A stretch of DNA of 64,000 nt, from contig JBFYKH010000007.1 in NCBI GenBank assembly GCA_041306075.1, positions 8,821 through 72,820 on the forward strand, read 5' to 3'. This DNA is from Candidatus Altiarchaeota archaeon (GTDB lineage Archaea > Altiarchaeota > Altiarchaeia > IMC4 > SCGC-AAA252-I15). The notes beneath the pieces were generated by a model. That model did not search any database. It was not told the DNA's origin and saw only the letters and a list, made by a program, of their open reading frames with translations. Made by a program: the position numbers and the translations under genes. This document shows, in pieces, positions 5,236 through 30,285 of this stretch (position 1 is the stretch's first letter; every line of letters starts with the position of its first letter).

Positions 5236-5310
5236 GCTCCCGTAGTGTAGACCGGCCTATCATTCCGGACTTTCGATCCGGTGACTCGGGTTCAAATCCC
5301 GACGGGAGCA
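5236..5310 (+). tRNA. tRNA-Glu (anticodon UUC)
   Basis: Acceptor GCTCCCG/CGGGAGC, anticodon arm CCGGA-CTTTCGA-TCCGG (UUC), T-arm TCGGG-TTCAAAT-CCCGA, discriminator A; 75 nt. Confidence 0.85.
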
Positions 5311-16666: not shown

Positions 16667-16706
16667 ACAAAACGGCTTTTTTTCCTCATTTTACCATTAA
16701 CTTTTG

Positions 16707-19700
16707 ATGCTTGGGAGCCGTCTGTGCCATAGGCTGGCGACCGTCGTAGTAGTGTCCATACTACTCTCATACGCTGCCTCCTATGTTCTCGCAGGCAAGC
16801 CGGGGGAGCGCGGGCAGGAGGGCGCCGGCTGGTGGGACCAAGTCGGCTCCTGCGTCAAGCGCGAATCCACCTGGACGTATTTTATCCCCATTTACGGGCA
16901 GATTAAGGCATTTGGCACCCTGTTCTGTATCGGGAAGGTCACCGTAATATCGGTCGTCGTGAAGGGTTTATGGGCGATACTGAAGGACCTCATAATCGAA
17001 GGCTTCACCAAGCTATTGATACTGTTCCTGGGGTTCCTCGAGTCGGGGCTCACAGCGACCCCTGACTGGGACAGCGATGCCTACAACAATCTCTACGGCA
17101 TCGTGCTTACGATTATCACGCCGCTCCTCTTCGTGCAGATAATCGTTGTCGCAGGGTACCTGATGTTCTCGTCCATAGACCCCGGCCAGCGTTCCCGGGC
17201 GAAGACGATGCTCACCCGGCTCCTGATGTCGCTCGTCCTGGTCGGGATAGCCAAACCGGCCTACATACTGCTGTTTGACCTCATCAGCGGCCCAAACAGC
17301 ATAACCTCGGCAATATTCGACGCGACATATAACATAATCACGGGCGGGCCGCCCGGGGCTGGGGCGATAACCGCGATGGTCGCGATTTTCGCAGGCATAA
17401 TCGTGTTCGCCGTTTTCAGCGGCGTGGGCCTCACCCTCCTCGGGTGGGTGGTGGCGTATCTCCTCATAGTGGTGTTCATAGTGTACATCCGCTACTCCAT
17501 GATAGTCATGCTCTACATCATATTCCCCTTCACCATATTCCTCTACTACTTCGAGTACACCCGGAGCGTGGGCGGGGACTTCCTCATGAAGACGCTCATG
17601 TGGCTCATAATGGGCCCGGTGATGGCGCTTGTGGTCTCCGTGACTGTCATCTCGCTCGTCGTCTTCCTCGGGGGCGGCGACATGGGGGTGGCCCAAAACA
17701 TAGCGACGAGCCTCGAGGACGTGAAGGAAGACGGCGTGGTGGACGAGGGGGCGATAACCGCCATCGAAGGCCAGGTCAATCTCCCGGCCGGCAGTCTCCC
17801 TGCCGGCCAGGCCGAGCCGCCGTTCACCGAAGCCCTCCTGGCCAAGGTCATAGCATTGTTCATATTCCTCGGCGGCGTAGTGGCGTTGGTCGCCGTGCCG
17901 CTCGTCATGTCCTCGCTCATGCACTGGGTGGGCGGCGCAATGGCCGCGTCCGGGATGATGGGCATCTCGGCAGGCGGCCCCCTGGCGGAGCGTTGGAAGC
18001 AGCTCAGCCTCGTCACGGCCGGCGAGCTGATGATGGGGCGCGGGTCCCAGAGCCTCGTGTCCGCAGCCACGAACATATCCTACATGAACCGTGACGCGGT
18101 CATCGACGGGCAGGGGATGCTGCCCGGCCTCTTCGGCAGCGCGAAGACCGAGGCTTCCATGGCGTCGAAGGGTTCAGCCAGCAGGGGATTCATGGGCAAT
18201 CTTGCGGCCGCATTCAGCGACCACTCGTCGCCGGCCACTAAGGACTTCTATGACCGCTCAAGAGGCGCGGTTTACGGGACTCCCATGTCCGGCGGCCATC
18301 AGGGCGTGGAGTCCGGGATGTCGCAGCGGCCCCCCTTATCCGCCGGGAACAGGCCTCAGGACGGGTCATACGCCGCCGCAGGCGACGGCCGGGGTATGAG
18401 GGTGAATCCGGAGTACCTGAAGGACGACGGCCCCCCAGGTTCGCGTTCCCAGGGCGCTGGCATGCTGAATGCGCCGGCGTCTGAGCTGATTGGCGCGGAC
18501 GGGAAGCCGATGCCTACGTCGACCACCCATTACGACCAGCGTGCCGGGCAGGCCATGGTCACCTCAAGTGAGTCGCAATGGGGAGTGCTGCCGGCATTCA
18601 GGGTGATGGAGCGGATTGACAGCGTTTTCAAGGGCATGGGCGAGGTCAGGAAGGGCGTCTCCGCGGTGTTCAGGCAGAAGGGCAGGCGCCTTGAAGGCGT
18701 GAAGCTCGCCGGCCGCGGCGCCGGGAAGATTCTGGTTTCCGCCGTCCCCATCAGCCCGTTCATGCCTGTGAGGATGATGGGGCGGGTCATCTACACGCTC
18801 ACGCCCGTCCAGCTTCCTCCCGCATTGCAGCCCTACGGCTTCGCCATCGGCGGCGCGATGAAGGGCATCGGCTTAAGGCAGGTCTTCATGCGCACCAAGT
18901 GGGCTGAGCAGATGGGCGTCTACAGGAAAGCATACAAGAACCGGGTGGAGGACCTTGACAAGCTGGATGAAACCCATAAAACCGAGGTCGGGAAGCGGAA
19001 GGCGGGCGTAGACTACTCAAAGGAGGATGAGACGTACCGGCAGAAGCGCGGCAAGGTTCTCTCCGAGATGGGCCGGCTGGAGGACGGGGTGGTCAAGACC
19101 ATGGACCGGATGGGTTTCGGGAAGACTCCGTTCGCCGACGTGCTGCCCGAGAACCCCGACTACGTCTCCTACCTCAAGCATCTTGAGTTTCTGAAGAAGC
19201 AGCGCGACCAGACAGCGGAATCGAACCCGGCGGTTGCCGAACACAGCCTATACGACGCATACCTCCGGAAGTCCAGGGTCACCGAGAAGGACCACCTGAT
19301 GCAGCCGGCCTCGACGCTCTGGGAGAAGCACGAGAAGGGCGAGCTCAAGGGGAAGGATAAGGAGGAGTACGATAAGCTCGCGAAGTCTGCGCAGGCGTTA
19401 TCTGCGGTCCAGTTCGCCGACAACTCCAAGGACAAGTCGGGAGCGGCCGGAAGGCAGGAGAAGGCGCGTTTCATGGCCGCGGGCCTCATGAAGGCGATGG
19501 GCGTGGAGGATTCCATGGAGCAGCGGAGGTTCCTTGAAGCCCACACAGGCCTTCTGGAATTCGACAGGAATGGCGCGCTCACTAGGCAGAGGTATGTGCG
19601 CCTCGACGGCGCCATGGCGCAGGGCGCTCACAACAGGGAGTTCATATACCAGGAGACTTACGACAACAAGGGCGAGCCGCTCGTGAAGGCCGAGTCGGTG

Positions 19701-22019
19701 AACCTCCCCCTCCACAGGGACTCCGACGGCAACGTCTACGCGAGCCCGTATGACATGAAGTACCTGACCTCGTCGATGCGGCATGACGACTGGGCGAGGA
19801 ACAAGGCGCTGGCCAGCGGTTTTGCACTGAAGAACCCGATGCGGTTCACATTCAACTACTCCGACCAGACCGGCCGGTACGTCTCCGGCCAAGGCCAGGC
19901 GGATGCCGTGGCTGAGGTGGCATACGACCCGAAGGAGGGGGTTCTCCTCGGCCCTGACGGCGAACATGCCACCTTGGTCGGGCAGGGGGTGCAGACCCAC
20001 ATGGGCGACCGCGTACTCTTCGTCAGGACCAGCGAGTGGGCCGGGAAAATATATGCTCCCGAGGGGCGGGAGGCGACAGCCGAAGAGTCTAAGGCGGTGG
20101 CTGAAAAAATAAAGGCCGGGGAGAGAGTCGAAGGGTTCGTCGTCCAGGACTGGCTTGACAAGACGAAGTTCGTAGCCCCTACCGAGATGCGTCAGGGAGC
20201 TGACGGCGGAGTTCAATTCGGGTATAAGATATGGAGGCACTACGGCTACAACACCATCCCCACGGCCGACAAGAAGGGGCGCCCGGACATGTCGGCCCCG
20301 ACCCTCATAGGCCGCGACGGCATGGTGTCCGCCCTGAAGGGGATGCCGACCCACGAGGAGCTTAACGGGCCCATGACCCGGGAGATGAGGGGGAAGATGG
20401 AGGAAATCCTGCTCATCAACGGACGGAAACTGGACTACGGCACCCTCACCGACGATGCACTGCGGGAGGAGATGCGGAAGCTCAAGGACTCCAAGAACAA
20501 GGAGTTCGAGAAAGACTTAGACAAGGGGGCTGAGGGCCACAGGATGAAGGCCGGGGCTGAGGCGGCAAGTCGCCTCTCTGGCGCCGGCGTAGCCGGAATC
20601 AGCGCAGAGCAGGCGGCCGGCGTCGACGGCATGTTCGAAATTCACAAGGAGTACATAGCGGCTGCCAAGAACATAACCCTGGCTGGAACCAGATGGGGGT
20701 CATCGACGGGCCTGACCGATAGTGGGATACAGGCAATCAAGGCGTCAGTCCAGAAGACCGCGGCCGAGCACGGGGTCAGGGTTGCGAGCGTAAGCTTCTA
20801 CGACAGCGGCGACACGGCAAGCGACCCGAACCCTATGCTGGTCAGGTTCGAAGACGGGGCCCACCTTCAGGTGAATCTGGCATACATCGCGAATAAGGCC
20901 CGGGCGAGGATAGGCGTCCACGTCGCAGGGAGGGACAGGTCGATAGAGGCCATCAAAGCCGACAGGGCAAAGGCTATAGCGGCCATCGAAGGCGACAAAT
21001 CCAAGCCAAAAGCGGACCGGAAGAAAGCGATAGAGGCGGTTAACGACAAGAAAAAAGAGGAACTAGCGGCCGTAGATCGCGCATTCCACCAGGCAGTCTT
21101 CAAGGACATCGGCGACGGCCTTATACAAAAAGACCTGGATGAAGGGCTGGCTGATTTCCTGAAGCGGGCTGACGGCCACCTCAACCTCCACGAGCTGGCC
21201 GGCCACAACGCGGCGGAGAAGCATGTCGACGCGGTCATGAAGGCGACGAAGGAGAATTATGGCGCGGGGGGCAGGGGCTGGGCCCACAGATTGCTCATGT
21301 TCCGGATGACGAAGCGCAACATGACATTGGCCTCGAAGGAGGTCATAGCGGACGGCATAGTCCCCGACAAGATGACGATGCCGGACGGCACAGAAAAGGA
21401 TAATCCCTCGTTGATAAGGCTCTACGTCGGGGAAAAACAGGACGGCAGCGACGGCCTCATCGGCGAAATACGGAAGTACAAGCGCCTCGGCAGGCCGCAC
21501 CTGATAAACTTCGCGAGGGCTTCAGCCATCGCCAAATTCAGGGGCCTGAAGACGGATAATGGAGCCGATGTCTCCGCCATGTTCGACGAGGCATTGAAGG
21601 GGCAGAACTCGGAAGGAAAGGACCGGCTCACGAGCGGCCAGGCGAAAACATACGAGAAACTGAAGGCGTACTTCGCGGAGCAGGCCGGCCACGTTAAACG
21701 GGAACGCGACGCAATCTACAAAAAGACCGCCGAGGCGGGGAAGGCCAGGCAGGCGAAAATGAGCGGGGCCCAAAGCGGGCCGCAACAACAGAAGGCCCAG
21801 GACGGCCCGGTTGCGGGTGACCTCTCCCCGGAGAAGCGGCCTCAGGCGGAGGCGGGCAAGCGCGGCCAGATACCCCATCACGAGCCTCCTCACGACCACG
21901 ACGCCCCGGGAGCTGGCGGCGGGCACCATGGCGAGGGCCCTGCATCCGGCCCTGACGGGCAAGGGCCTGGAGACGGCGGAGACGGCGGCGGAGACGGCGG
22001 AGGAGACGGTGGAGACTGA
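16707..22019 (+). CDS. Giant membrane protein: N-terminal VirB6/TrbL-like polytopic domain (about 430 aa) plus about 1300-aa charged hydrophilic tail ending in a [DGG]n repeat
   Basis: 1771 aa (ATG at 16707; the track starts at TTG 16704); 8+ TM helices in the first 430 aa; long K/E/D/R-rich region; C-terminus ...HHEPPHDHDAPGAGGGHHGEGPASGPDGQGPGDGGDGGGDGGGDGGD. Confidence 0.55.
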   Translation: MLGSRLCHRLATVVVVSILLSYAASYVLAGKPGERGQEGAGWWDQVGSCVKRESTWTYFIPIYGQIKAFGTLFCIGKVTVISVVVKGLWAILKDLIIEGFTKLLILFLGFLESGLTATPDWDSDAYNNLYGIVLTIITPLLFVQIIVVAGYLMFSSIDPGQRSRAKTMLTRLLMSLVLVGIAKPAYILLFDLISGPNSITSAIFDATYNIITGGPPGAGAITAMVAIFAGIIVFAVFSGVGLTLLGWVVAYLLIVVFIVYIRYSMIVMLYIIFPFTIFLYYFEYTRSVGGDFLMKTLMWLIMGPVMALVVSVTVISLVVFLGGGDMGVAQNIATSLEDVKEDGVVDEGAITAIEGQVNLPAGSLPAGQAEPPFTEALLAKVIALFIFLGGVVALVAVPLVMSSLMHWVGGAMAASGMMGISAGGPLAERWKQLSLVTAGELMMGRGSQSLVSAATNISYMNRDAVIDGQGMLPGLFGSAKTEASMASKGSASRGFMGNLAAAFSDHSSPATKDFYDRSRGAVYGTPMSGGHQGVESGMSQRPPLSAGNRPQDGSYAAAGDGRGMRVNPEYLKDDGPPGSRSQGAGMLNAPASELIGADGKPMPTSTTHYDQRAGQAMVTSSESQWGVLPAFRVMERIDSVFKGMGEVRKGVSAVFRQKGRRLEGVKLAGRGAGKILVSAVPISPFMPVRMMGRVIYTLTPVQLPPALQPYGFAIGGAMKGIGLRQVFMRTKWAEQMGVYRKAYKNRVEDLDKLDETHKTEVGKRKAGVDYSKEDETYRQKRGKVLSEMGRLEDGVVKTMDRMGFGKTPFADVLPENPDYVSYLKHLEFLKKQRDQTAESNPAVAEHSLYDAYLRKSRVTEKDHLMQPASTLWEKHEKGELKGKDKEEYDKLAKSAQALSAVQFADNSKDKSGAAGRQEKARFMAAGLMKAMGVEDSMEQRRFLEAHTGLLEFDRNGALTRQRYVRLDGAMAQGAHNREFIYQETYDNKGEPLVKAESVNLPLHRDSDGNVYASPYDMKYLTSSMRHDDWARNKALASGFALKNPMRFTFNYSDQTGRYVSGQGQADAVAEVAYDPKEGVLLGPDGEHATLVGQGVQTHMGDRVLFVRTSEWAGKIYAPEGREATAEESKAVAEKIKAGERVEGFVVQDWLDKTKFVAPTEMRQGADGGVQFGYKIWRHYGYNTIPTADKKGRPDMSAPTLIGRDGMVSALKGMPTHEELNGPMTREMRGKMEEILLINGRKLDYGTLTDDALREEMRKLKDSKNKEFEKDLDKGAEGHRMKAGAEAASRLSGAGVAGISAEQAAGVDGMFEIHKEYIAAAKNITLAGTRWGSSTGLTDSGIQAIKASVQKTAAEHGVRVASVSFYDSGDTASDPNPMLVRFEDGAHLQVNLAYIANKARARIGVHVAGRDRSIEAIKADRAKAIAAIEGDKSKPKADRKKAIEAVNDKKKEELAAVDRAFHQAVFKDIGDGLIQKDLDEGLADFLKRADGHLNLHELAGHNAAEKHVDAVMKATKENYGAGGRGWAHRLLMFRMTKRNMTLASKEVIADGIVPDKMTMPDGTEKDNPSLIRLYVGEKQDGSDGLIGEIRKYKRLGRPHLINFARASAIAKFRGLKTDNGADVSAMFDEALKGQNSEGKDRLTSGQAKTYEKLKAYFAEQAGHVKRERDAIYKKTAEAGKARQAKMSGAQSGPQQQKAQDGPVAGDLSPEKRPQAEAGKRGQIPHHEPPHDHDAPGAGGGHHGEGPASGPDGQGPGDGGDGGGDGGGDGGD

Positions 22020-22058
22020 GATGAACTGCATGCATTCGGAATCGCGGAGGAAGCCCTG

Positions 22059-22562
22059 ATGGCTGAATACACCGACCTGGACCTGGAAGTGATAAAGAAC
22101 ATGAAGGAGGAGTGCATCCAAGAGGTGAAGGCAAACGCAGTGGACGACCTGTACTACTTCATCGTAGAACACAAGCACGGGAAGGGCGCGAGGGACCCGA
22201 TGATTCCGGTCGACTGGGACCTGGTGTTCAAGGAGAACCAGTGCCCCGAATGCAAGGATATAATCAGCCTCAGGGAGTTGACCTACGTCTGCGACAAGTG
22301 CGGCCTCAAGATACCCGTCAGGATGTACGATCTGGCATCGGAGGAATACTCCTCCTGGGTGAAGATACACGACGATGGCGTATCCCTGGCGGAGCGGATG
22401 CGGAAGGCCGGTTACTCCGATGAGCGCACGACCGCACTGTACGAGGATGCTGAGAGGCAGGCTTTCAGGGAGATAGAGTCCTTGAAAACGGAGGATGCGG
22501 GCAAATCCCGGAGGGGCGCCAGGATAGGGCCTTCATCCCGGGGGAGGGGCGGTGAAAGCTAA
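22059..22562 (+). CDS. Cytoplasmic zinc-ribbon protein (operon member)
   Basis: 167 aa; CPECK...CDKCG; GGAGGA RBS; overlaps the next gene by 11 nt. Confidence 0.5.
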   Translation: MAEYTDLDLEVIKNMKEECIQEVKANAVDDLYYFIVEHKHGKGARDPMIPVDWDLVFKENQCPECKDIISLRELTYVCDKCGLKIPVRMYDLASEEYSSWVKIHDDGVSLAERMRKAGYSDERTTALYEDAERQAFREIESLKTEDAGKSRRGARIGPSSRGRGGES

Positions 22563-24582
22563 GGCATTTGTCGCGCTCGTCCTGGTTTCGGCGCTAGCAT
22601 TCGCACTGGTCTCGGCGCAGAGCGACCGGGCAAGGCAGGGCACGTCCTGGATGAAAGAGCTCCTCCGCTCGCCCATGGAGATAATGGCGAAAACGTACAT
22701 CGAGCACACGCTGGGCTCCGTGGTCCAGGCATTGACCAACAACCCCACATTCTACTGCATTCCGGGGGACCCCACCTGCGCCGTCACCCCTGCGGGCATA
22801 GACCTGCTCATGAACAAGTGGATACACCTCCTCGTGCCTTTCTACATCGTCGCGATGCTGTTCACGGCCCTCTTCTTCCTCCTGAAGGCCGGCACGCCCC
22901 GCGGGCGGGCCAGGGCCAGGAGCATGGCGGTGAAACTCATATTCGGCATGGCCCTCGTCGCCCTCTCCCCCGTCATATACCAGACCCTCCTTGAGACCTC
23001 CGTGGTGCTGGTGAATTTCTTCCTCACGGGATACGCCACCGAACTGAACCTTGGGCTCATGACGGTACCCATCGACGCGCAGATATTCCCCCCGCTCGGG
23101 CAGGATGAGATAAACAACATGACGTGGGCGCTCGACAACACGGGCCTCACGATGTCGTGGATATTCATGTACGTCGCCTGCGGCACCCTCATACTCGGCA
23201 ACATCGTGCTCTGGTTCAGGAACATGATGGTCTATTTCTACGGCGTCTTCTTCCCGGTGATAATGTTCCTGTACACGTTCGAGGTGACCAAGCCCCAGGG
23301 CGAGAAATGGATAAACGGCTCCCTCAAGTGGATATTCGCCCCGGTTCTGCAGGCCATGCTCCTGGCGTTCACGGTGCAGGTAGCCAACAACATAAGCATG
23401 TGGAACTTCTCGGGGACTGTCGGCTCGATCGTGCTGACGTTCCTGAGCAACTCCCTGACCGGGATGATAATACTCGCAGGCATATCGGGGTTCATCATGG
23501 GGCCTATGATAGTCGGGCAGGCCATGAGCTGGTTCGGGGACGCAGTATCGTCCGTGGGCCTCGGCACAGGCAACCAGTGGATGGTGAGCATCGGCAACCT
23601 CCTTGCGGGCGGAGGCTCCGGATCGGTGCTCCAGGCCGAGGCGGAGTACGCCAGGGCGTCGTCTTACGAGCGCTACCGGACCATGATGACCGACCGCAGC
23701 ACGCCCGGGACCGCGACTCTCCGCCAGCCACAGGGCGCGTCGGGCCAGGCCCCGTCAATCGGCTCCCCGGGCCAACACTACGCCGCAAGCGGCGACAGCG
23801 CGCCGTCCGGCGGCCAATCCGCAGCCGGCCGCGGCGGCATGTTCGAGTCCTCAACACCTACGGCACAGCTCAGAAGCGCTTTGTCGTACGCCCCGGCCAG
23901 TGATGCTGGCGCCGGACAGTCGACGGGGGCGCCCGGCAACGAGTCTGCTGGCAGCCAACAGGACACATACTCCGGGACCCTGAGCGGCACCCAGACCGGC
24001 TCCCAGCCGCGCCAGCATCAGTCCTACTCGGGCAGCCCGTCCTCAGAGGATAGAGCAGCTAGTGGCTTCAGCCCGGAGGAGCTGAAGGGGGAGCTTGACC
24101 AGAGTTCAGCCAATGACGGCGGCACCCGCTCGGGAGCCGACGCAGCCGGGGATTCATATGCGGCATCCTCGTTCGGGGCGCTGATAAACGACGAGCTTAA
24201 GAAGGAAAAAACGTCCGAGACGATGAGGGCCCTGGCCACAGGAAAGCCCGGTATCAGCGTGCCCCGGGGGGAGGAAGTGGAGGTGCGCACGGGCTCGGCA
24301 GGGGGCATACCGTCAATCAGGACGCCGAGGACGCCGACAGCAGGCTCAAGGGGCATGGGCGCGCAGCCTACGGAGGATGAGGAGATGGCCAGGCTCGCAG
24401 GCATAGCGGCCGACAAGGAGCGGGAGCTGACCGGCCGGCAAATCGAACAGAAGCAGAAGATGGAGGGGATGCAGGCCGACCAGGTGCAGAGGGACGCCGG
24501 CAGAAGGCAGGCGGAAACGGACGGCAAAGCCGCTGAGAAGAAGGAGGCTGCGAAGCGCAGGAACGTGGACCGCGAGCGATGA
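22552..24582 (+). CDS. VirB6/TrbL-like polytopic membrane protein with long disordered S/G/T/Q-rich and K/E-rich C-terminal tail
   Basis: 676 aa; GTG start after GGAGG; signal peptide MKAKAFVALVLVSALAFALVSAQS, extracytoplasmic segment, 6-7 TM helices, low-complexity tail. Confidence 0.55.
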   Translation: MKAKAFVALVLVSALAFALVSAQSDRARQGTSWMKELLRSPMEIMAKTYIEHTLGSVVQALTNNPTFYCIPGDPTCAVTPAGIDLLMNKWIHLLVPFYIVAMLFTALFFLLKAGTPRGRARARSMAVKLIFGMALVALSPVIYQTLLETSVVLVNFFLTGYATELNLGLMTVPIDAQIFPPLGQDEINNMTWALDNTGLTMSWIFMYVACGTLILGNIVLWFRNMMVYFYGVFFPVIMFLYTFEVTKPQGEKWINGSLKWIFAPVLQAMLLAFTVQVANNISMWNFSGTVGSIVLTFLSNSLTGMIILAGISGFIMGPMIVGQAMSWFGDAVSSVGLGTGNQWMVSIGNLLAGGGSGSVLQAEAEYARASSYERYRTMMTDRSTPGTATLRQPQGASGQAPSIGSPGQHYAASGDSAPSGGQSAAGRGGMFESSTPTAQLRSALSYAPASDAGAGQSTGAPGNESAGSQQDTYSGTLSGTQTGSQPRQHQSYSGSPSSEDRAASGFSPEELKGELDQSSANDGGTRSGADAAGDSYAASSFGALINDELKKEKTSETMRALATGKPGISVPRGEEVEVRTGSAGGIPSIRTPRTPTAGSRGMGAQPTEDEEMARLAGIAADKERELTGRQIEQKQKMEGMQADQVQRDAGRRQAETDGKAAEKKEAAKRRNVDRER

Positions 24583-25583
24583 AAGACGACAAGGGCGGGC
24601 GCAGGCTCCAAGAGGAGATAGAGAAGACCGACCAGGAGCTGAGGAAGCTCGACGATAAGGCGGAGGAGCGGGAGGGGAGGAAGCTCGCCGTCGAGGAGGA
24701 CCTGCAGACCAAGTCCAGGATACTCAAGCGGAAGCTGATGGAACCCGCCCAGGCATCGGGCGCGGCTCCCGGGAAGAAGTCCGAGGAAAAGCCCCTCAGG
24801 GCCGAATCCCCGGAGACCCTGCTCAAGGAAGCCGTCCTGCGCCACCAGAACTCCCGGCTGGAAGAAAGGCGCGGAAGACGCGCCCAAATGACGACCGACG
24901 CCAGGGCTAGGATGCGCATAACGTTGGGGGTGGAGTCCGCCATCAACGAATCCATGGAACGCGACCTCCGCGGCCTGGAGGAAACGTCCGACGGCCGTCT
25001 GAAGCGTATACGGGAGCTGAGCGCCAGACGCGCGGGCGGTGGCGGTTCAGCCCAGGAATCGGCCGAGCTGAGGCGCCTGGAGGACAATGAGGCCGACAGA
25101 TACTACCTCAGGGAGCGTCTCCTCAGCCGCATCCGCCTAGAAGAGCTCGGGGAATACGGCTGGGTGAGGCCGATAGGGGACGGGATGCTCGGCATCAAGC
25201 CGTACACCGTCCTGACGCAGTACGACCGGCTGAGCCCGTCGAACAAGCGGGGCGTGAGGTGGCAGTCGGACTCCCTGATGATGCGATTCCAGAACGCAAT
25301 CGTCGGCCACTATGCGCCGAAGAAGGCTTCGTTCTCCTGGCTTCACGAGAAGACCCTCAAGGGCTTCGAGACCCAGTTCGACGACATAAACGAGGAGATA
25401 TACTCCGACAAGAAGTGGGCGGAGACGGTGCGCAAGGGACAGGCGCGGCTGGAGGACATGGAGGAGGAGCTTAGGGGATACGACAATTTCACCGTCGAGG
25501 AGGAGCGGAAGATAAAGAAGCTCTTCAGCGACTACATGAAGAAGCAGGTGGAATTGGGCAAGGAGATAGAATACAATCCCTGA
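24579..25583 (+). CDS. Charged coiled-coil protein (operon member; VirB8/VirB10-like role unknown)
   Basis: 334 aa; start overlaps the upstream stop (ATGA); highly charged E/R/K-rich helical sequence. Confidence 0.45.
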   Translation: MKDDKGGRRLQEEIEKTDQELRKLDDKAEEREGRKLAVEEDLQTKSRILKRKLMEPAQASGAAPGKKSEEKPLRAESPETLLKEAVLRHQNSRLEERRGRRAQMTTDARARMRITLGVESAINESMERDLRGLEETSDGRLKRIRELSARRAGGGGSAQESAELRRLEDNEADRYYLRERLLSRIRLEELGEYGWVRPIGDGMLGIKPYTVLTQYDRLSPSNKRGVRWQSDSLMMRFQNAIVGHYAPKKASFSWLHEKTLKGFETQFDDINEEIYSDKKWAETVRKGQARLEDMEEELRGYDNFTVEEERKIKKLFSDYMKKQVELGKEIEYNP

Positions 25584-25627
25584 GTTATATATTCACCCAA
25601 GACTAATTTATCCCATGAGGTCGACCG

Positions 25628-26536
25628 ATGCCATACGCCATACCCGCTAACATCAGGTACGAGGAGCGGCTCGTAGGCCCGCTGACTATAAAGCAGTCGC
25701 TCTACCTCGGCGCATGCCTTATGGTCGCATGGTTCATATACCAGTCGCCGGAGCTTCCGCCGCCAACCAACGTGGTGGTCGCGCTCCTAGTGGCGGTGAT
25801 AGGGATAGGTTTCGCATTCTTCAACCTGGACGTCTGGCTGACGAACTACATCACCTTCCTCGGACTCACGAAGAAGAGCTCCTGGATTTCGCCCGCGGCG
25901 AGGAAGCTGATGGGCATCAAGTCCATCCGCACGGCATCCATCTACTTCCAGGACAACAAGGTCGTGGGCGTCGTGAAGGTGAAGCCCATCAACTTCGGCG
26001 TCCTGGCGGAGCAGGACAAGGACACGGTCATCTACGGATTCCTGGAGTTCCTGAACTCCCTGAACTTCCCGGTGCAGATAGTCATGCGCAGCGTGAACCT
26101 GGACCTGGAGGACTATCTCCGCCACCTGAAACGGCGGATAGTGCAGCGCGACGACAAGGTGGCGCTCGCCTACTACGAGCACTTCTCGGAGTACATGAGG
26201 AGCTACATAAAGGTGAACAAGATAAACGACAGGCACTTCTACGTCGTCGTCCCCGGCCAGAAGAAGAGGTCGGAGAAGGAGACGATAGACTACCTCGACA
26301 CCCAGTGCAACGAGATAATGGGCCGGCTGTCGCTGTCCGGGATAGTCTCGGAGCGGATGAACGACCGGCAGCTCCTGAACCTGTACAAGTCATATTTCAC
26401 GGACAGCTTCGAGCTCTACGACAGCTACATAAGCCCCATAACCATGTACCGGAAGATGTGGAAGGAGGCGCCGAAGCCTGTCAAGGAGATGAGGGGGGGC
26501 CGGGGGGATGAGCCCCAGGGGGCGGGTGAAGTCTAA
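25628..26536 (+). CDS. Membrane-anchored protein: VirB3-like 2-TM N-terminus plus a domain resembling the N-terminal domain of VirB4/TrbE ATPases
   Basis: 302 aa; two TM helices at residues about 25-75; ...SIYFQDNKVVGVVKVKPINFGVLAEQDKDTVIYGFLEFLNSLNFPVQIVMRS... as in the VirB4 N-domain; 3' end overlaps the next ORF in a G7 tract. Confidence 0.5.
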   Translation: MPYAIPANIRYEERLVGPLTIKQSLYLGACLMVAWFIYQSPELPPPTNVVVALLVAVIGIGFAFFNLDVWLTNYITFLGLTKKSSWISPAARKLMGIKSIRTASIYFQDNKVVGVVKVKPINFGVLAEQDKDTVIYGFLEFLNSLNFPVQIVMRSVNLDLEDYLRHLKRRIVQRDDKVALAYYEHFSEYMRSYIKVNKINDRHFYVVVPGQKKRSEKETIDYLDTQCNEIMGRLSLSGIVSERMNDRQLLNLYKSYFTDSFELYDSYISPITMYRKMWKEAPKPVKEMRGGRGDEPQGAGEV

Positions 26537-28811
26537 GATGGCATTCGGGTTCGGAGGGTCGAAGGCGAAGGAGAAGACCGAGGCAGAGTCGTATACGGAG
26601 TATGAGGACCGTCTCATAGAATACCTGACCTCGCCGTCCACCATCAACATCAAGCCGTCGGTGATAGAGATAAACAAGCTCCATCAGGTGATATGCGCCA
26701 TCAACTATCCGCGTCTCGTGGACCCGGGCTGGCTGACCCGGCTCATAGAGATGAACCTGGACTTCGACCTTGCCATACACATCAGCCCCTACAAGATAGA
26801 CACCACCATCAAGCTCCTCGAGGCGGAGATAAAAAAGCAGAAGACGGACCTGTATGCCCTCGAGACGGAGGGCAAGATAGTCCCGCAGGCCCTGATACAG
26901 CAGCACCAGGACACGATGGCGCTCCTGCAGCTCGTCCAGGAAGGCACGGAGAAGATGTTCGACATGTCGCTCTACCTAGATGCCAAGGCATTCAACAAGG
27001 AGGACATGGAGCGGATAAGCAAGCAGATAAGGGACACCATGAACAGCATCATGATAATCCCGAAGATACCCTCGTACCAGATGTACAAGGCCCTTCGGAG
27101 CGTCCTGCCGCTCGGCGTCGACGAGCTGCAGGTGACGAGGAACATCACAAGCTCAGCCGCGGCCGCCTGCTTCCCGTTCGCCATCACTTCGCTTGAGCAG
27201 CACGCGACCGGCATCCTAATAGGGTTCAACGAATACAACAGCATCCCCATCATAATCGACCCGTTCCAGCTGTCCAACCCCAACATACTGGTGCTCGGCA
27301 CCTCGGGCGGCGGGAAGAGCTACTCGATAAAGCTGATACTCATGAGGGAGTTCATGGAGGGCGTCTCCATCAACATCATCGACCCGCAGGCGGAGTACAC
27401 GGACCTTGTGAGGACCTTCAACGGCGAGATAATCAGGATAGCCCCGGACTCGGACAGCGTCATCAACCCGTTCGACCTGATGGACCAGACGTTCGACGAG
27501 AAGAAGCTATCCCTCCTCGCATTCTTCAGGTGCCTCCTCGGGGAGCTCACGGAGCCGCAGAGGGCGATACTAGACGAGACCATAGACCGCACATACGAGG
27601 AGAAGGGCATAAACAAGGACTCCAAGACCTGGAGCCGCCAGCCGCCCCTCCTCGAGGACCTGTACAACGAGGTGCTCCCGCTCACGAAGTCCCAGAAGGA
27701 GATAATCTACGGCCCCGCGATGGCCATCGTGAACCGCCTCAAGAGCTACGTCTTCGGGCCGATGAGGTTCCTGAACCAGCACACGAGGATAAACATCTCC
27801 AACCGGATGATAAGCTTCGACATCAAGGACTCGCCCGACATCGGCAAGGGCACCATCATGTTCCTGCTCCTCGAGTACGTGTACACCCAGATGAAGAAGT
27901 CGAAGACCAGGAAGATACTCGTCATCGACGAGGCCTGGACGGTCCTTTCGGCAGGCGAGCAGGCCGAGTACGTGCTCCGTCTCGTCAAGACGTGCAGGAA
28001 GTTCAACCTGGCGCTCATCATGATAACCCAGGACGTGGAGGACGTCCTCGTCTCCCGGGCCGGCAGGGCGGTTCTGACGAACACGGCCACGAAGATACTC
28101 CTCAAGCAGGACACCTCCATACTTGACCAGATAGTAGAGCGCTTCAACCTCAACCAGGCGGAGCGGCGATTCCTCCAGATTTCCACGATGGGCCGCGCCC
28201 TCCTGATAGCCGAGACCACGAGAGTCCCCATATACGTGCAGGCGTCCCCGGAGGAGCATAGGATAATAACGACCCGTCCCGACGAGCTCATAAACCGCCG
28301 GGAGGTGAAGCGTCCGGAGGGGGAGGACCTGGTTAAGGAGTTCGACATAAACAAGGTCGTCCAGCGGAAGGAGGACCTGGACGACGACCAGATACAGGCG
28401 CTCGGGCAGAGGGACTTCGGAGAGGTGCGCGTCAAGAACCTGAGCGGCGAGTCGGAGCTGTACCTGATAAAGAACGAGACCGAGGACACGGACGAGCACT
28501 TCGTCATGCAGCAGCTGATATTCAACGAGGTCAGGAGGTACACAGACAAGGTCCTGATACACCACACCCGGCTGCCCGACATCACGTTCGAGACCCGCAC
28601 CGGCAAGATGGTCGCAATCGAGATCGAGGCGGACGTGGGCCTCAAGAAGGGCATAGACAACATGCAGGACAAGCTCCCGCTGATGCAGAAGTACGACGAC
28701 TACTTCTACGTGGTCTCCAACCCGGCGCTTAAGAGGGACTACGGCAGCAAGTTCGGGGACATGCTGGCGCGGGAGGAGGTCCAGCAGAGGATTGCGACCT
28801 ATTTCGTGTGA
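26508..28811 (+). CDS. VirB4/TrbE/TraC-family (CedB-like) secretion ATPase with extra C-terminal domain of about 190 aa
   Basis: 767 aa; Walker A ILVLGTSGGGKSYSI, Walker B KILVIDEAWTV, ...LALIMITQ...; C-terminal extension ...PDITFETRTGKMVAIEIEADVGLKKG... Confidence 0.8.
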   Translation: MSPRGRVKSKMAFGFGGSKAKEKTEAESYTEYEDRLIEYLTSPSTINIKPSVIEINKLHQVICAINYPRLVDPGWLTRLIEMNLDFDLAIHISPYKIDTTIKLLEAEIKKQKTDLYALETEGKIVPQALIQQHQDTMALLQLVQEGTEKMFDMSLYLDAKAFNKEDMERISKQIRDTMNSIMIIPKIPSYQMYKALRSVLPLGVDELQVTRNITSSAAAACFPFAITSLEQHATGILIGFNEYNSIPIIIDPFQLSNPNILVLGTSGGGKSYSIKLILMREFMEGVSINIIDPQAEYTDLVRTFNGEIIRIAPDSDSVINPFDLMDQTFDEKKLSLLAFFRCLLGELTEPQRAILDETIDRTYEEKGINKDSKTWSRQPPLLEDLYNEVLPLTKSQKEIIYGPAMAIVNRLKSYVFGPMRFLNQHTRINISNRMISFDIKDSPDIGKGTIMFLLLEYVYTQMKKSKTRKILVIDEAWTVLSAGEQAEYVLRLVKTCRKFNLALIMITQDVEDVLVSRAGRAVLTNTATKILLKQDTSILDQIVERFNLNQAERRFLQISTMGRALLIAETTRVPIYVQASPEEHRIITTRPDELINRREVKRPEGEDLVKEFDINKVVQRKEDLDDDQIQALGQRDFGEVRVKNLSGESELYLIKNETEDTDEHFVMQQLIFNEVRRYTDKVLIHHTRLPDITFETRTGKMVAIEIEADVGLKKGIDNMQDKLPLMQKYDDYFYVVSNPALKRDYGSKFGDMLAREEVQQRIATYFV

Positions 28812-28851
28812 TGACCGTAGGCTTTTTAACGCCTGCTGCAATAACTAACTG

Positions 28852-29007
28852 ATGGTGCCAATCACCAGGGACAACCGCTTGTGCACGCACCGTGTCGGCA
28901 ACAAATGCGGAAACCAGAAGGTCGGAAACGCCCCTGTCGTGAACGACAGCCTCCAGTCCAGGTGGTACTGCAGCAACTGTCCCTACTACTTCAAGGCGTC
29001 AGGCTGA
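28852..29007 (+). CDS. Small Cys-rich (zinc-finger-like) protein, 51 aa
   Basis: Below the track cutoff: MVPITRDNRLCTHRVGNKCGNQKVGNAPVVNDSLQSRWYCSNCPYYFKASG*; fills the gap between the ATPase and the pilin genes. Confidence 0.35.
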   Translation: MVPITRDNRLCTHRVGNKCGNQKVGNAPVVNDSLQSRWYCSNCPYYFKASG

Positions 29008-29010
29008 AAC

Positions 29011-29328
29011 ATGGCCCCCATAAGCGTCATGCTTGCGCGCCATGCAGCAGCCTTCATGCTGGCGTTCGCCCTGGCGGGGTTCGCCCAGGCCCAGTGCTAC
29101 GAGCCCTTGGGCTCCGACCTGATGAAACCCGTAAAGAATATCATAGACTTCCTGGTGGTGATAGCCTACCCCATCGGATTCTTCATGATAGTCTACATGG
29201 GGGTAAAATGGATAATCTCCGAGGGCCCCGAAGACCGGGAGAACGCCAGGCGCGGGGTCATCTACGTGATAATAGGCCTGATACTCCTCAGGTCCGCGTT
29301 CTATCTGGTCACATACCTCCTGTGCTAG
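29011..29328 (+). CDS. VirB2/TrbC-like pilin-sized membrane protein, paralogue 2
   Basis: 105 aa; signal peptide ...AGFAQAQ; motif MGVKWIISEGPEDRENARRGVIYVIIGLILL between two hydrophobic helices. Confidence 0.6.
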   Translation: MAPISVMLARHAAAFMLAFALAGFAQAQCYEPLGSDLMKPVKNIIDFLVVIAYPIGFFMIVYMGVKWIISEGPEDRENARRGVIYVIIGLILLRSAFYLVTYLLC

Positions 29329-29364
29329 GCTCGGATTAATAAGCATAAAGGCGTATTTGCTACC

Positions 29365-29688
29365 ATGGCATCGCCAAGGTTAATCCTAGCGGCCGTCCTG
29401 ATAGTCTCTCTCCTGTCGATGGCGGCTTCCGCTCAGACCCCTCTCAGCTGGGTCGTCGGCCTGAAGAGGGTGGCGTTCGCGCTCGGGTGGATAATGATGG
29501 TCTTCATGGGCGTTAAATGGATTGTCGCGGACAGCGCCAATGAGAGGGCGGAGGCGAAGAAGGGGATGATATACATCGTCATCGGCCTCCTGATCGTGGC
29601 GAGCGTTTCAAGCCTGCTCCAGATGTACTGCGACGTGGTCGCCTCGTCCGGGGTGGCGGGCTTCACCTGCACGGCGGGGTCCTACTAG
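29365..29688 (+). CDS. VirB2/TrbC-like pilin-sized membrane protein, paralogue 3
   Basis: 107 aa; signal peptide ...SMAASAQT; motif MGVKWIVADSANERAEAKKGMIYIVIGLLIV; C-terminal Cys pair. Confidence 0.6.
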   Translation: MASPRLILAAVLIVSLLSMAASAQTPLSWVVGLKRVAFALGWIMMVFMGVKWIVADSANERAEAKKGMIYIVIGLLIVASVSSLLQMYCDVVASSGVAGFTCTAGSY

Positions 29689-29730
29689 GGGCTCGTGCGG
29701 CCCAAGCCGCAGTCAGCCTTCTTTCTCCCA
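29689..29730. terminator. Putative bidirectional hairpin terminator between convergent genes
   Basis: TGCGGC-CCAA-GCCGCA hairpin (29696-29711) followed by a T-rich run, exactly between the stops of the pilin-3 and PLD genes. Confidence 0.3.
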
Positions 29731-30285
29731 CAGGTTCCTGAAATATGCCTCAAAGTACCTGGCAGTCTCCTCATCGCTTATGAGCACGTCGACTTCATTG
29801 TTCCTCTCGAGGCCGAAGTAGCTGAAGTTGGTGCTTCCTAGGAGGACCTTTTTGCCGTCGACTATGATTAGCTTCGCGTGCGTCGTCGTCTCGTTGGAGT
29901 CCATCCTGACTTCTACGCCCCCCGCCCTCAGGACCTCGAAGGCGTTGTTCTCCTTAGAGTACTCGTCAGCCACCACCCTCACGTCCACGCCCCTCTCCTT
30001 GGCGTACACGAGATCCCTCACGAGCCTGTTCTGGCGGCTCCCGGGATTCGTCTCGTAGTACTTCATCTCGAATGCCACGATGTGCACGCTCTTCTTAGCC
30101 TCCGTTATCGCCTTATGCGCCTCCTCATAGTATCCGCGGTCGGATATGGGCACCACGACCGGCTCGCCTTCCCGTGAAGGGGAGCCGCAGGCGTAGCCTA
30201 TGCCGGCGTCGCGGACCAGGGCCCCCAGGACGACTCCGACGAAGACCCCCGCCAACAAGCCCCACAGTAACGGCCGCCCCATCAC
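29713..30285 (-). CDS. Phospholipase D-family (HKD) endonuclease, Nuc-like, membrane-anchored
   Basis: 190 aa; N-terminal TM; HKD motif THAKLIIVDGKKVLLGSTNFS. Confidence 0.7.
   Translation of the reverse strand: MMGRPLLWGLLAGVFVGVVLGALVRDAGIGYACGSPSREGEPVVVPISDRGYYEEAHKAITEAKKSVHIVAFEMKYYETNPGSRQNRLVRDLVYAKERGVDVRVVADEYSKENNAFEVLRAGGVEVRMDSNETTTHAKLIIVDGKKVLLGSTNFSYFGLERNNEVDVLISDEETARYFEAYFRNLWEKEG

Follow-up and report, generated by a model that had tools for sequence, protein, structure and literature searches.

The boundary between a VirB3-like/VirB4 N-domain gene and a VirB4 ATPase gene in a T4SS-like cluster of Altiarchaeota

Genes for VirB3 adjoin, and often overlap, those for VirB4, and the two proteins occur in a 1:1 stoichiometry (PMC12857230). 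Fusions of VirB3 with VirB4 have been documented as well (PMC4027160; PMC12102498), and the N-terminal part of VirB4 has a remote homolog in TrsD, a separate protein whose gene lies next to virB4 (PMC12102498). Here we analyzed a 64,000-nucleotide stretch of DNA from a Candidatus Altiarchaeota archaeon (referred to here as the window), in which two successive open reading frames, ORF1 and ORF2, divide a VirB3-like hairpin and a VirB4 protein between them at a site marked by two runs of G (Table 1). We consider it about 90% probable that the break is a native, conserved boundary of two adjacent and probably translationally coupled genes in a chromosomal T4SS-like cluster.

Table 1. Features of the ORF1/ORF2 locus, in window positions
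Feature	Position	Strand	Remarks
676-aa polytopic membrane protein and 334-aa charged protein genes	22552..25583	+	upstream, same strand as ORF1/ORF2
ORF1, 302 aa	25628..26536	+	PrgI/VirB3-like hairpin, TrsD/TraC-like domain, variable tail
G7 run	26493..26499	+	inside the non-conserved ORF1 tail; codons AGG GGG GGC
G6 run	26502..26507	+	same non-conserved tail; codons CGG GGG G..
Upstream in-frame ATG	26508..26510	+	start of the longest ORF2 (767 aa); probably not the conserved start
Shine-Dalgarno-like GGGTGA	26524..26529	+	embedded in the final ORF1 codons; 8 nt 5' of ATG 26538
ORF1 TAA stop	26534..26536	+	same alignment column as the nearest relative's TGA
ORF2 from the conserved start, 757 aa	26538..28811	+	rest of the VirB4 N-domain, P-loop ATPase, C-terminal extension
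Two VirB2/T4SS pilin genes	29011..29328, 29365..29688	+	downstream of ORF2

The two proteins and their gene cluster

ORF1 is laid out as a two-helix membrane hairpin (residues ~1 to 80), a soluble domain (~85 to 260) and a tail (~283 to 302). Its N-terminus scored above the gathering threshold of the PrgI profile (29.8 bits, cutoff 27), a profile matched by all 83 members of the ORF1 family; in the structure model, helices 21-39 and 47-64 fall on hydrophobic segments, giving two transmembrane helices in a gene directly 5' of virB4. With 302 residues, including an extra soluble domain of ~200, ORF1 exceeds the size of the VirB3 family (10 to 15 kDa; PMC12857230). Residues 105-194 matched the TrsD/TraD profile NF041427 (E = 7e-6; 26 bits, far below the family cutoff of 200 bits), and ORF1 is, as has been described for TrsD, remotely homologous to the N-terminus of VirB4. 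Homologs of ORF1 also matched positions 50-178 of the 375 in PF11130, the TraC N-terminal domain, i.e., its first half. The ORF1 profile returned only noise from PDB sequences, and alignment of the family to the single F TraC sequence by hhalign was not significant (E = 0.47). We conclude that ORF1 is a VirB3-like transmembrane hairpin followed by the first half of the VirB4 N-terminal domain; the initial annotation had read it as VirB3-like transmembrane segments plus VirB4 N-domain, and the PrgI, Pfam and NCBIfam profile matches bear this out.

ORF2 continues with the second half of the VirB4 N-domain (residues ~19 to 220), the P-loop ATPase (~225 to 589) and a C-terminal extension of ~150 residues. 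It matched P-loop_TraG, AAA_10 and DUF87 in Pfam (PF19044, 5.7e-26; PF12846; PF01935) and PDB entry 4AG5 both by sequence (E = 1.6e-33) and in Foldseek (1.4e-23, TM 0.85), where TrwK was also aligned over ~600 columns. The Walker A motif GTSGGGKS is invariant. ORF2 is a VirB4 family ATPase, as first annotated, a reading upheld by Pfam, PDB and Foldseek alike. The C-terminal ~150 residues matched nothing in Pfam or among PDB sequences, whether searched singly or as a profile of 17 sequences; one idea, based on their predicted topology, is that they may adopt a PD-(D/E)xK-like fold.

Taken together, the two proteins make up a complete VirB4 N-domain and ATPase, colinear with full-length VirB4. 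On NF045975, a single-chain VirB4 profile of 894 positions, ORF1 residues 66-259 corresponded to positions 74-277 and ORF2 residues 10-577 to positions 278-893 (E = 7e-73), which places the break at 277|278; on NF045971, positions 24-169 lay on ORF1 and 192-735 on ORF2. Since all of these scores were below the equivalog cutoffs, ORF1 and ORF2 do not belong to those specific subfamilies. Fused proteins of ~1060 to 1110 aa with the same order of hairpin, N-domain and ATPase were found in more distant archaeal relatives (42 to 46% identity) and only there, so that the VirB3-VirB4 fusion invoked in the initial annotation is indeed a known architecture. Two of these relatives, P0233 and P0238, matched NF045975 in one stretch (from position 3 or 7 to 875 or 889), and the concatenated ORF1 and ORF2 sequences were colinear with the fused proteins, the break lying in a non-conserved linker of 20 to 60 aa. 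This linker is probably disordered; the model has pLDDT values below 50 for ORF1 residues 286-302 and for residues 1-17 of the 757-aa ORF2. The split falls where more distant relatives keep one continuous polypeptide.

The two downstream pilin genes matched Pfam T4SS_pilin (2.7e-12 and 1.9e-08) as well as TrbC. Upstream, the genes for the 676-aa and 334-aa proteins are joined by an ATGA overlap; neither protein had a Pfam or NCBIfam match, and the membrane protein is possibly VirB6-like. All four genes are syntenic in Altiarchaeota loci, and the genes flanking the cluster are housekeeping genes. No relaxase, coupling protein or integrase was present among the ORFs scanned (the larger ORFs in the case of relaxase and T4CP), and an Rfam scan returned only two tRNAs and no 16S. 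The T4SS-like cluster is apparently core and chromosomal across Altiarchaeota. We found no description of it in the searchable literature, and documenting this context across the phylum is of modest value in itself.

Position of the break in the window and in related genomes

The longest ORFs at the junction, 302 aa in frame 2 and 767 aa in frame 3 (26508..28811), overlap by 29 nt in a region spanning both G-runs, and an in-frame TGA at 26490-26492 leaves frame 3 open from 26493, both as originally described. The overlap holds for the longest ORFs but not for the start conserved in relatives, ATG 26538, which lies 1 nt past the TAA. The nearest relative, 93% identical at the amino acid level and available as four independent assemblies, aligned without gaps across the junction. 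Its ORF1 stop is in the same column as that of the window, GGGTGA and ATG 26538 are identical in the two, and gene callers begin its 757-aa ORF2 1 nt past the ORF1 stop. The G-runs, in contrast, are missing there: the relative has GGGGCCG at the G7 site, GGCCGG at the G6 site and GGG in place of ATG 26508. In the nearest relative, ORF2 starts at the counterpart of ATG 26538 and position 26508 has no ATG, so an overlap of the real genes is unlikely.

These sequence comparisons make ATG 26538 the most likely start of ORF2. We regard as unlikely the alternative that ORF2 begins at ATG 26508 and the same two genes share 29 nt across the G-runs. The upstream ATG is in frame, the G-rich stretch 5' of it could serve as a weak ribosome-binding site, and the protein deposited for the source contig has 767 aa (P0121 at NCBI, 100% identical). 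However, this ATG is not preserved in the nearest relative, GGGTGA is better placed, ahead of ATG 26538, and the upstream start would add 10 residues to an N-terminus that is already disordered in the model. Orthologs of ORF2 at 98% identity are called at 757 aa, and orthologs in general begin close to the ORF1 stop (see below). We therefore suggest that the start of the VirB4 gene be shifted from 26508 to 26538.

The same alignment bears on the proposal that a truly fused gene had been split by an indel introduced into a G-run during sequencing or assembly. Some platforms do make errors in homopolymers, and a 1-nt change would be enough to join the two ORFs; nevertheless, we consider such an error extremely improbable, given the gap-free alignment to four independent assemblies and the shared position of the ORF1 stop. 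Moreover, downstream of the runs the ORF1 tail keeps its homology in frame 2 (PQGAGEV in the window, PQEAGDV in the nearest relative), and every Altiarchaeota ortholog is split. Substitution patterns in the 45-nt overlap do not discriminate between the frames, since the translations of both diverge strongly from the relative.

To survey the split, we located ORF1 in 35 species-level loci of Altiarchaeota and read the junction in detail in 33. No ORF spanned both genes in any of the 35 orthologous loci, and ORF1 invariably ended before the ORF2 anchor motif; with the stop at 26534-26536, this led us to reject a reading of the window locus itself as a VirB3-VirB4 fusion protein. The two genes were adjacent in every locus with enough sequence, and all readable junctions broke at the same variable linker. 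Likewise, the 120 best homologs of ORF1 were all proteins of 207 to 360 aa split from ORF2, and the Altiarchaeota homologs of ORF2, when complete, all had ~730 to 806 aa. In the 29 junctions tabulated (28 orthologous loci and the window), ORF2 started between 4 nt before and 10 nt after the ORF1 stop, in arrangements such as ATGA, TAGATG and TGAnATG, and a Shine-Dalgarno-like 5-mer preceded the ORF2 start in 14, compared with a background of 9%. The comparison of fused and split forms in related genomes, as the initial annotation had advised, thus found relatives consistently split, about half of them with such a motif upstream of ORF2.

These observations are consistent with translational coupling. 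Ribosomes ending ORF1 at the TAA would restart 1 nt further on, at ATG 26538, and the embedded GGGTGA would aid this restart. Such termination-reinitiation coupling would yield roughly equimolar amounts of the two proteins, which we would expect to assemble 1:1, as do VirB3 and VirB4 in R388.

The G-runs and their possible roles

Removing one G from either run in silico (for the longer run, G7 to G6) produced a single uninterrupted ORF of 1060 aa, confirming the earlier observation that a 1-nt change would fuse the genes. A programmed +1 ribosomal frameshift, or transcriptional slippage losing one G, could in principle yield a fraction of such a VirB3-VirB4 protein; the fused architecture is viable in relatives, and GGG GGG might permit tRNA re-pairing in the +1 frame. 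We nevertheless hold this to be very unlikely. The tract is missing in the nearest relative, the zero frame has neither a slow codon nor a stop after the run, and the window has roughly one G/C run of 6 or more per kb. The offset between ORF1 and ORF2 is 0, 1 or 2 depending on the species, and since the frame relation thus varies among orthologous loci, no frameshift mechanism can be conserved.

The runs had also been proposed as a phase-variable contingency tract switching the secretion machine on and off, and a homopolymer of 7 at a gene junction is suggestive of one. No off state was obtained, however: G6 gives a fusion like that of the relatives, and G8 shortens ORF1 to 294 aa, removing 8 residues of the non-conserved tail and leaving ORF2 and its start as they are. 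A change of ±1 in the G-run would inactivate nothing. As the tract is, in addition, not conserved and the window has many similar runs, we judge a switch to be extremely unlikely. Programmed slippage, an assembly indel and an on/off switch were the three accounts first offered for the tract, and none of them is supported by the comparison with relatives or by the simulated length changes.

Nor is the G7/G6 pair unusual in this DNA. At 61% G+C, the window has 90 homopolymers of 6 nt or longer; 7 of these are G-runs of 7 or more, and 6 pairs of runs lie no more than 20 nt apart. The tract itself sits where ORF1 is not conserved, in a tail rich in Gly, Arg and Pro, and we take it to be an accident peculiar to this strain. 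The runs would have arisen as a lineage-specific by-product of high G+C and of an unconstrained Gly/Arg-rich tail that also bears a G-rich ribosome-binding site. For the source strain, a single assembly was found. An exact-pattern scan of metagenome contigs found no same-strain copies of the flank of the G-tract, and a looser scan recovered only the known relative and one further split locus, with an ATGA overlap. It is very improbable that, in this strain, the new tract leads a small share of transcripts or ribosomes to slip by one base, so that the two-piece form is made alongside a fused 1060-aa form resembling that of sister lineages; if true, this would capture gene fusion or fission at a domain linker while it is being sampled, ahead of fixation. 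Under the preferred reading, a conserved boundary of two adjacent genes, the flag of a suspected frameshift or pseudogene can be removed from the VirB3/VirB4 pair.

Comparison with known systems

The locus resembles PrgI (VirB3) and PrgJ (VirB4) of pCF10 and other monoderm MPF-FATA systems, in which a PrgI-family gene with two transmembrane helices lies directly 5' of virB4 and is tightly coupled to it (PMC12857230). Its ATPase domain is, among solved structures, closest to Thermoanaerobacter VirB4 (4AG5). Unlike PrgI (~117 aa), ORF1 carries the added soluble domain, and unlike the VirB4 of PrgI/PrgJ systems, that of the window has an extra C-terminal region, in a cluster that is chromosomal and archaeal. 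The Ced (Sulfolobales), Ted (Thermoproteales) and Patescibacteria T4SS share with the window VirB2-like pilins, VirB4 and a polytopic membrane protein among housekeeping genes (PMC9905601), and weak matches to CedB/CedD profiles were seen (E = 1e-14 to 1e-15); the sequence families of the proteins are different.

Other systems divide the VirB4 N-domain differently. ORF2 aligns to residues 349-764 of TraC from the F plasmid; in F, however, TraC carries the whole N-domain, and the VirB3 counterpart, TraL, is a small protein of its own with its gene ~5 kb upstream. TrsD/TraD of the pGO1/pIP501 type and of Patescibacteria place a VirB4 N-terminal-like part on its own polypeptide beside virB4, but TrsD/TraD stands alone, whereas the TrsD-like domain of ORF1 is fused to a VirB3-like hairpin. 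The VirB4 N-terminal domain is therefore divisible at one linker, its first half being found on VirB3, alone as TrsD, or still fused to the remainder. In a rough neighbour-joining tree, with deep divergences and some sequences truncated at contig ends, fused and split forms were interspersed, suggesting that these three states interconvert across lineages; the sister clade, with P0233 and P0234, was fused in this tree. Finally, the order of ORF1 and ORF2, from transmembrane hairpin to the end of the ATPase, is colinear with single-chain hairpin VirB4 proteins (the Mycoplasma ICE Mbov_0397 family NF045975, some MPF-T VirB3-VirB4 fusions and the archaeal P0233, P0234 and P0238), from which the window and all examined Altiarchaeota orthologs differ in being divided by a stop and a restart at the 277|278 position.

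The junction of ORF1 and ORF2

The window sequence agrees with the initial annotation in that two long reading frames overlap by 29 nt, with frame 3 open from 26493 on, after a TGA at 26490-26492, and with a G7 and a G6 run at the junction. The suggested fusion by a 1-nt change could also be reproduced in silico, since shortening either run by one G (the first to G6 or the second to G5) yields a single ORF of 1060 aa. The runs are unexceptional for DNA of this window, which has 61% G+C and in which homopolymers reach 6 nt or more 90 times, with six pairs of runs no more than 20 nt apart. Its longest homopolymers are G10 (5712) and T10 (6388), both in a stretch of lower GC3 immediately 3' of a tRNA gene (5236-5310).

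Features of the junction, the T4SS-like cluster and the single-chain VirB4 profile alignments
Feature	Position	Strand	Remarks
ORF1	25628-26536	+	frame 2, 302 aa, stop TAA 26534-26536
Longest downstream ORF	26508 (ATG)-28811	+	frame 3, 767 aa
G7 run	26493-26499	+
G6 run	26502-26507	+
Second in-frame ATG	26538	+	1 nt past TAA, 8 nt 3' of GGTGA (26525-26529)
T4SS-like cluster	16704-30285		among housekeeping genes (ThrRS, DTD, FtsY, PolD; EF-2/EF-1alpha elsewhere in window); 1771-aa ORF, zinc-ribbon protein, 676-aa membrane protein, 334-aa protein, PrgI+TrsD-like (ORF1), VirB4 (ORF2), two VirB2-type pilin genes
PLD-family nuclease gene	within 16704-30285		opposite orientation
NF045975 (Mycoplasma-ICE VirB4, 894 positions) on ORF1	aa 66-259		profile positions 74-277, E 4e-15
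NF045975 on ORF2 (757-aa form)	aa 10-577		profile positions 278-893, E 7e-73
NF045971 (CD1110-type VirB4, 752 positions) on ORF1			profile positions 24-169
NF045971 on ORF2 (757-aa form)			profile positions 192-735

Lengthening the first run in silico (G7 to G8) gives an ORF1 of 294 aa that lacks only non-conserved tail residues and leaves ORF2 and its start intact. As neither the G6 nor the G8 variant has an off state, the tract cannot be the phase-variable on/off switch that had been proposed for the machine.

Four independent assemblies of the nearest relative, with 93%-identical ORF1, align with 26440-26600 without any gap. They read GGGGCCG at the G7 site, GGCCGG at the G6 site and GGG in place of ATG 26508, and share with the window the GGGTGA, the alignment column of the stop and, 1 nt further on, the ATG; gene callers give their VirB4 757 aa. 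The ORF1 tail 3' of the runs keeps its frame-2 homology (PQGAGEV versus PQEAGDV). Together, the gap-free alignment, common stop column and tail homology rule out an assembly or sequencing indel in the window, another cause considered initially.

The source record calls two genes and starts ORF2 at the upstream ATG (767-aa protein, 26508-28811). Comparative evidence favors ATG 26538 (757 aa), and the upstream start is probably a mis-annotation; if used, it would merely add 10 residues to an N-terminus that is already disordered. For the longest ORFs the overlap is literally there, but as an overlap of genes it probably owes its existence to the longest-ORF rule.

Division of the VirB4 N-domain

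The initial domain reading was right. ORF1 residues 5-78 match the PrgI (VirB3-like) family above the Pfam gathering threshold, and precomputed annotation places a PF26593 "TraC-like" domain on ORF1 homologs; PrgI is matched by 83 of 83 family members and PF11130 (TraC N-terminal domain) by 53 of 83 at E<=0.1. ORF2 is a VirB4 ATPase, with Pfam matches to P-loop_TraG, AAA_10 and DUF87, a match to PDB 4AG5 (sequence search, E 1.6e-33; Foldseek, TM 0.85) and a Foldseek alignment to TrwK, the VirB4 of R388, over ~600 columns, beyond the ATPase domain alone.

Decisive is the colinearity with the single-chain VirB4 profiles NF045975 and NF045971; ORF1 and ORF2 meet exactly between positions 277 and 278 of the former. 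The TrsD/TraD profile is matched by ORF1 aa 105-194 (E 7e-6). While PF11130 covers residues 40-416 in F TraC, ORF1 homologs cover profile positions 50-178 only, and a fused relative matches positions 125-246, across the junction equivalent. Profile colinearity and partial PF11130 coverage thus show that the N-domain is divided: ORF1 comprises a VirB3-like hairpin and its first half, and ORF2 its second half and the ATPase.

Searched with a profile, a set of 1.84 billion representatives yielded 2215 family members; among the best 150, 17 have at least 880 aa and the others mostly 270-330 aa. Four fused proteins (P0233, P0234, P0235 and P0238; 1071-1110 aa, 42-46% identity to ORF2) carry PrgI, TraC-like and VirB4 domains, and P0233 and P0238 each give a single continuous match to NF045975 (position 3/7 to 875/889). 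Their gene neighborhoods are archaeal (histone-fold and XPB genes), with an integrase and a ParA gene close to P0238. The ORF1+ORF2 concatenate aligns colinearly with these proteins, the break falling within a non-conserved linker of 20-60 aa. In a rough neighbor-joining tree, split and fused forms are interspersed, and the sister group of the Altiarchaeota clade, whose members are all split, consists of fused forms.

ORF2 aa ~608-757 (28350-28811) form a conserved C-terminal extension of ~150 aa that the fused relatives and one Diapherotrites homolog share; searches of Pfam, NCBIfam and PDB sequences gave no match to it. E695 is invariant and D652, H654, E664, D681 and K712 nearly so; the predicted topology (a small helix/strand unit, then alpha-beta-beta-beta-alpha-beta) is reminiscent of the PD-(D/E)xK nuclease fold. 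Precomputed Pfam hits place an intein domain (PF14890) on some Altiarchaeota-type VirB4 orthologs (P0232, P0237).

Conservation of the split and proposed coupling

The best 120 ORF1 homologs, labelled Altiarchaeota wherever named, are all 207-360 aa long (identity 93% down to ~55%), and complete ORF2 homologs of Altiarchaeota have ~730-806 aa. Our junction set comprised 40 sequences (35 loci from a scan of species-representative genomes, the four nearest-relative assemblies and the window); none of the 36 with a locatable ORF1 (the 35 loci and the window) had a single ORF with both ORF1 and ORF2 anchor motifs. By these comparisons, the split is real and conserved.

At 28 orthologous junctions and in the window, the distance from the stop of ORF1 to the start of ORF2 ranges from -4 to +10 nt, with ATGA overlaps, TAGATG, TGAnATG and other arrangements, and the frame offset is 0, 1 or 2, differing by species. 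Such variation excludes a conserved frameshift mechanism, and the frameshift or slippage origin is, like the indel and phase variation, not supported. At 14 of 29 loci, window included, ORF2 has an SD-like 5-mer ahead of its start (background 9%), which accounts for the Gly/Glu-rich ends of ORF1 tails.

At four of the 29 junctions (L006, L010, L021 and L025) both ORFs share a frame and are separated by no more than the TAG or TAA, immediately after which comes the ATG, so that plain stop-codon readthrough would fuse them. A G8 run lies just before the stop in L010, and a G6 run in L017. The MAG JBDREA01, source of locus L031, has a second ORF1-like copy (L036, 5995-6711; 238 aa) that matches ORF1 residues 75-283 only and lacks both the membrane hairpin and an adjoining VirB4; it is a stand-alone TrsD-like domain gene, a type to which many 200-230-aa representatives in the ORF1 family search belong.

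We propose that ORF1 and ORF2 are translated in sequence, with termination at the TAA and reinitiation at ATG 26538, which the GGGTGA embedded in the ORF1 end may aid. The products would assemble as the equivalent of a VirB3-VirB4 unit; TrwM and TrwK, the VirB3 and VirB4 of R388, have 1:1 stoichiometry (PMC12857230).

Genomic setting and known systems

The window is chromosomal archaeal DNA, with genes for aEF-2, aEF-1alpha, ThrRS, D-aminoacyl-tRNA deacylase, FtsY and PolD DP1/DP2. Within the cluster the 1771-aa ORF had no profile match, and a scan of the larger ORFs revealed no relaxase, coupling protein or integrase. Our literature search returned no description of this cluster and no paper that connects VirB4 with Altiarchaeota or ascribes T4SS genes to them. 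Since the cluster is syntenic across Altiarchaeota loci in many MAGs, it suggests a core, domesticated system like Ced/Ted or the T4SS of Patescibacteria.

Some systems have VirB3-VirB4 fusions (PMC4027160). In Patescibacteria TrsD, a protein in its own right whose remote homology is to the VirB4 N-terminal part, is common beside virB4 (PMC12102498). The ORF1/ORF2 boundary is an ordinary, conserved and probably coupled one, of the known kind of VirB3 / TrsD-like / VirB4 modularity.
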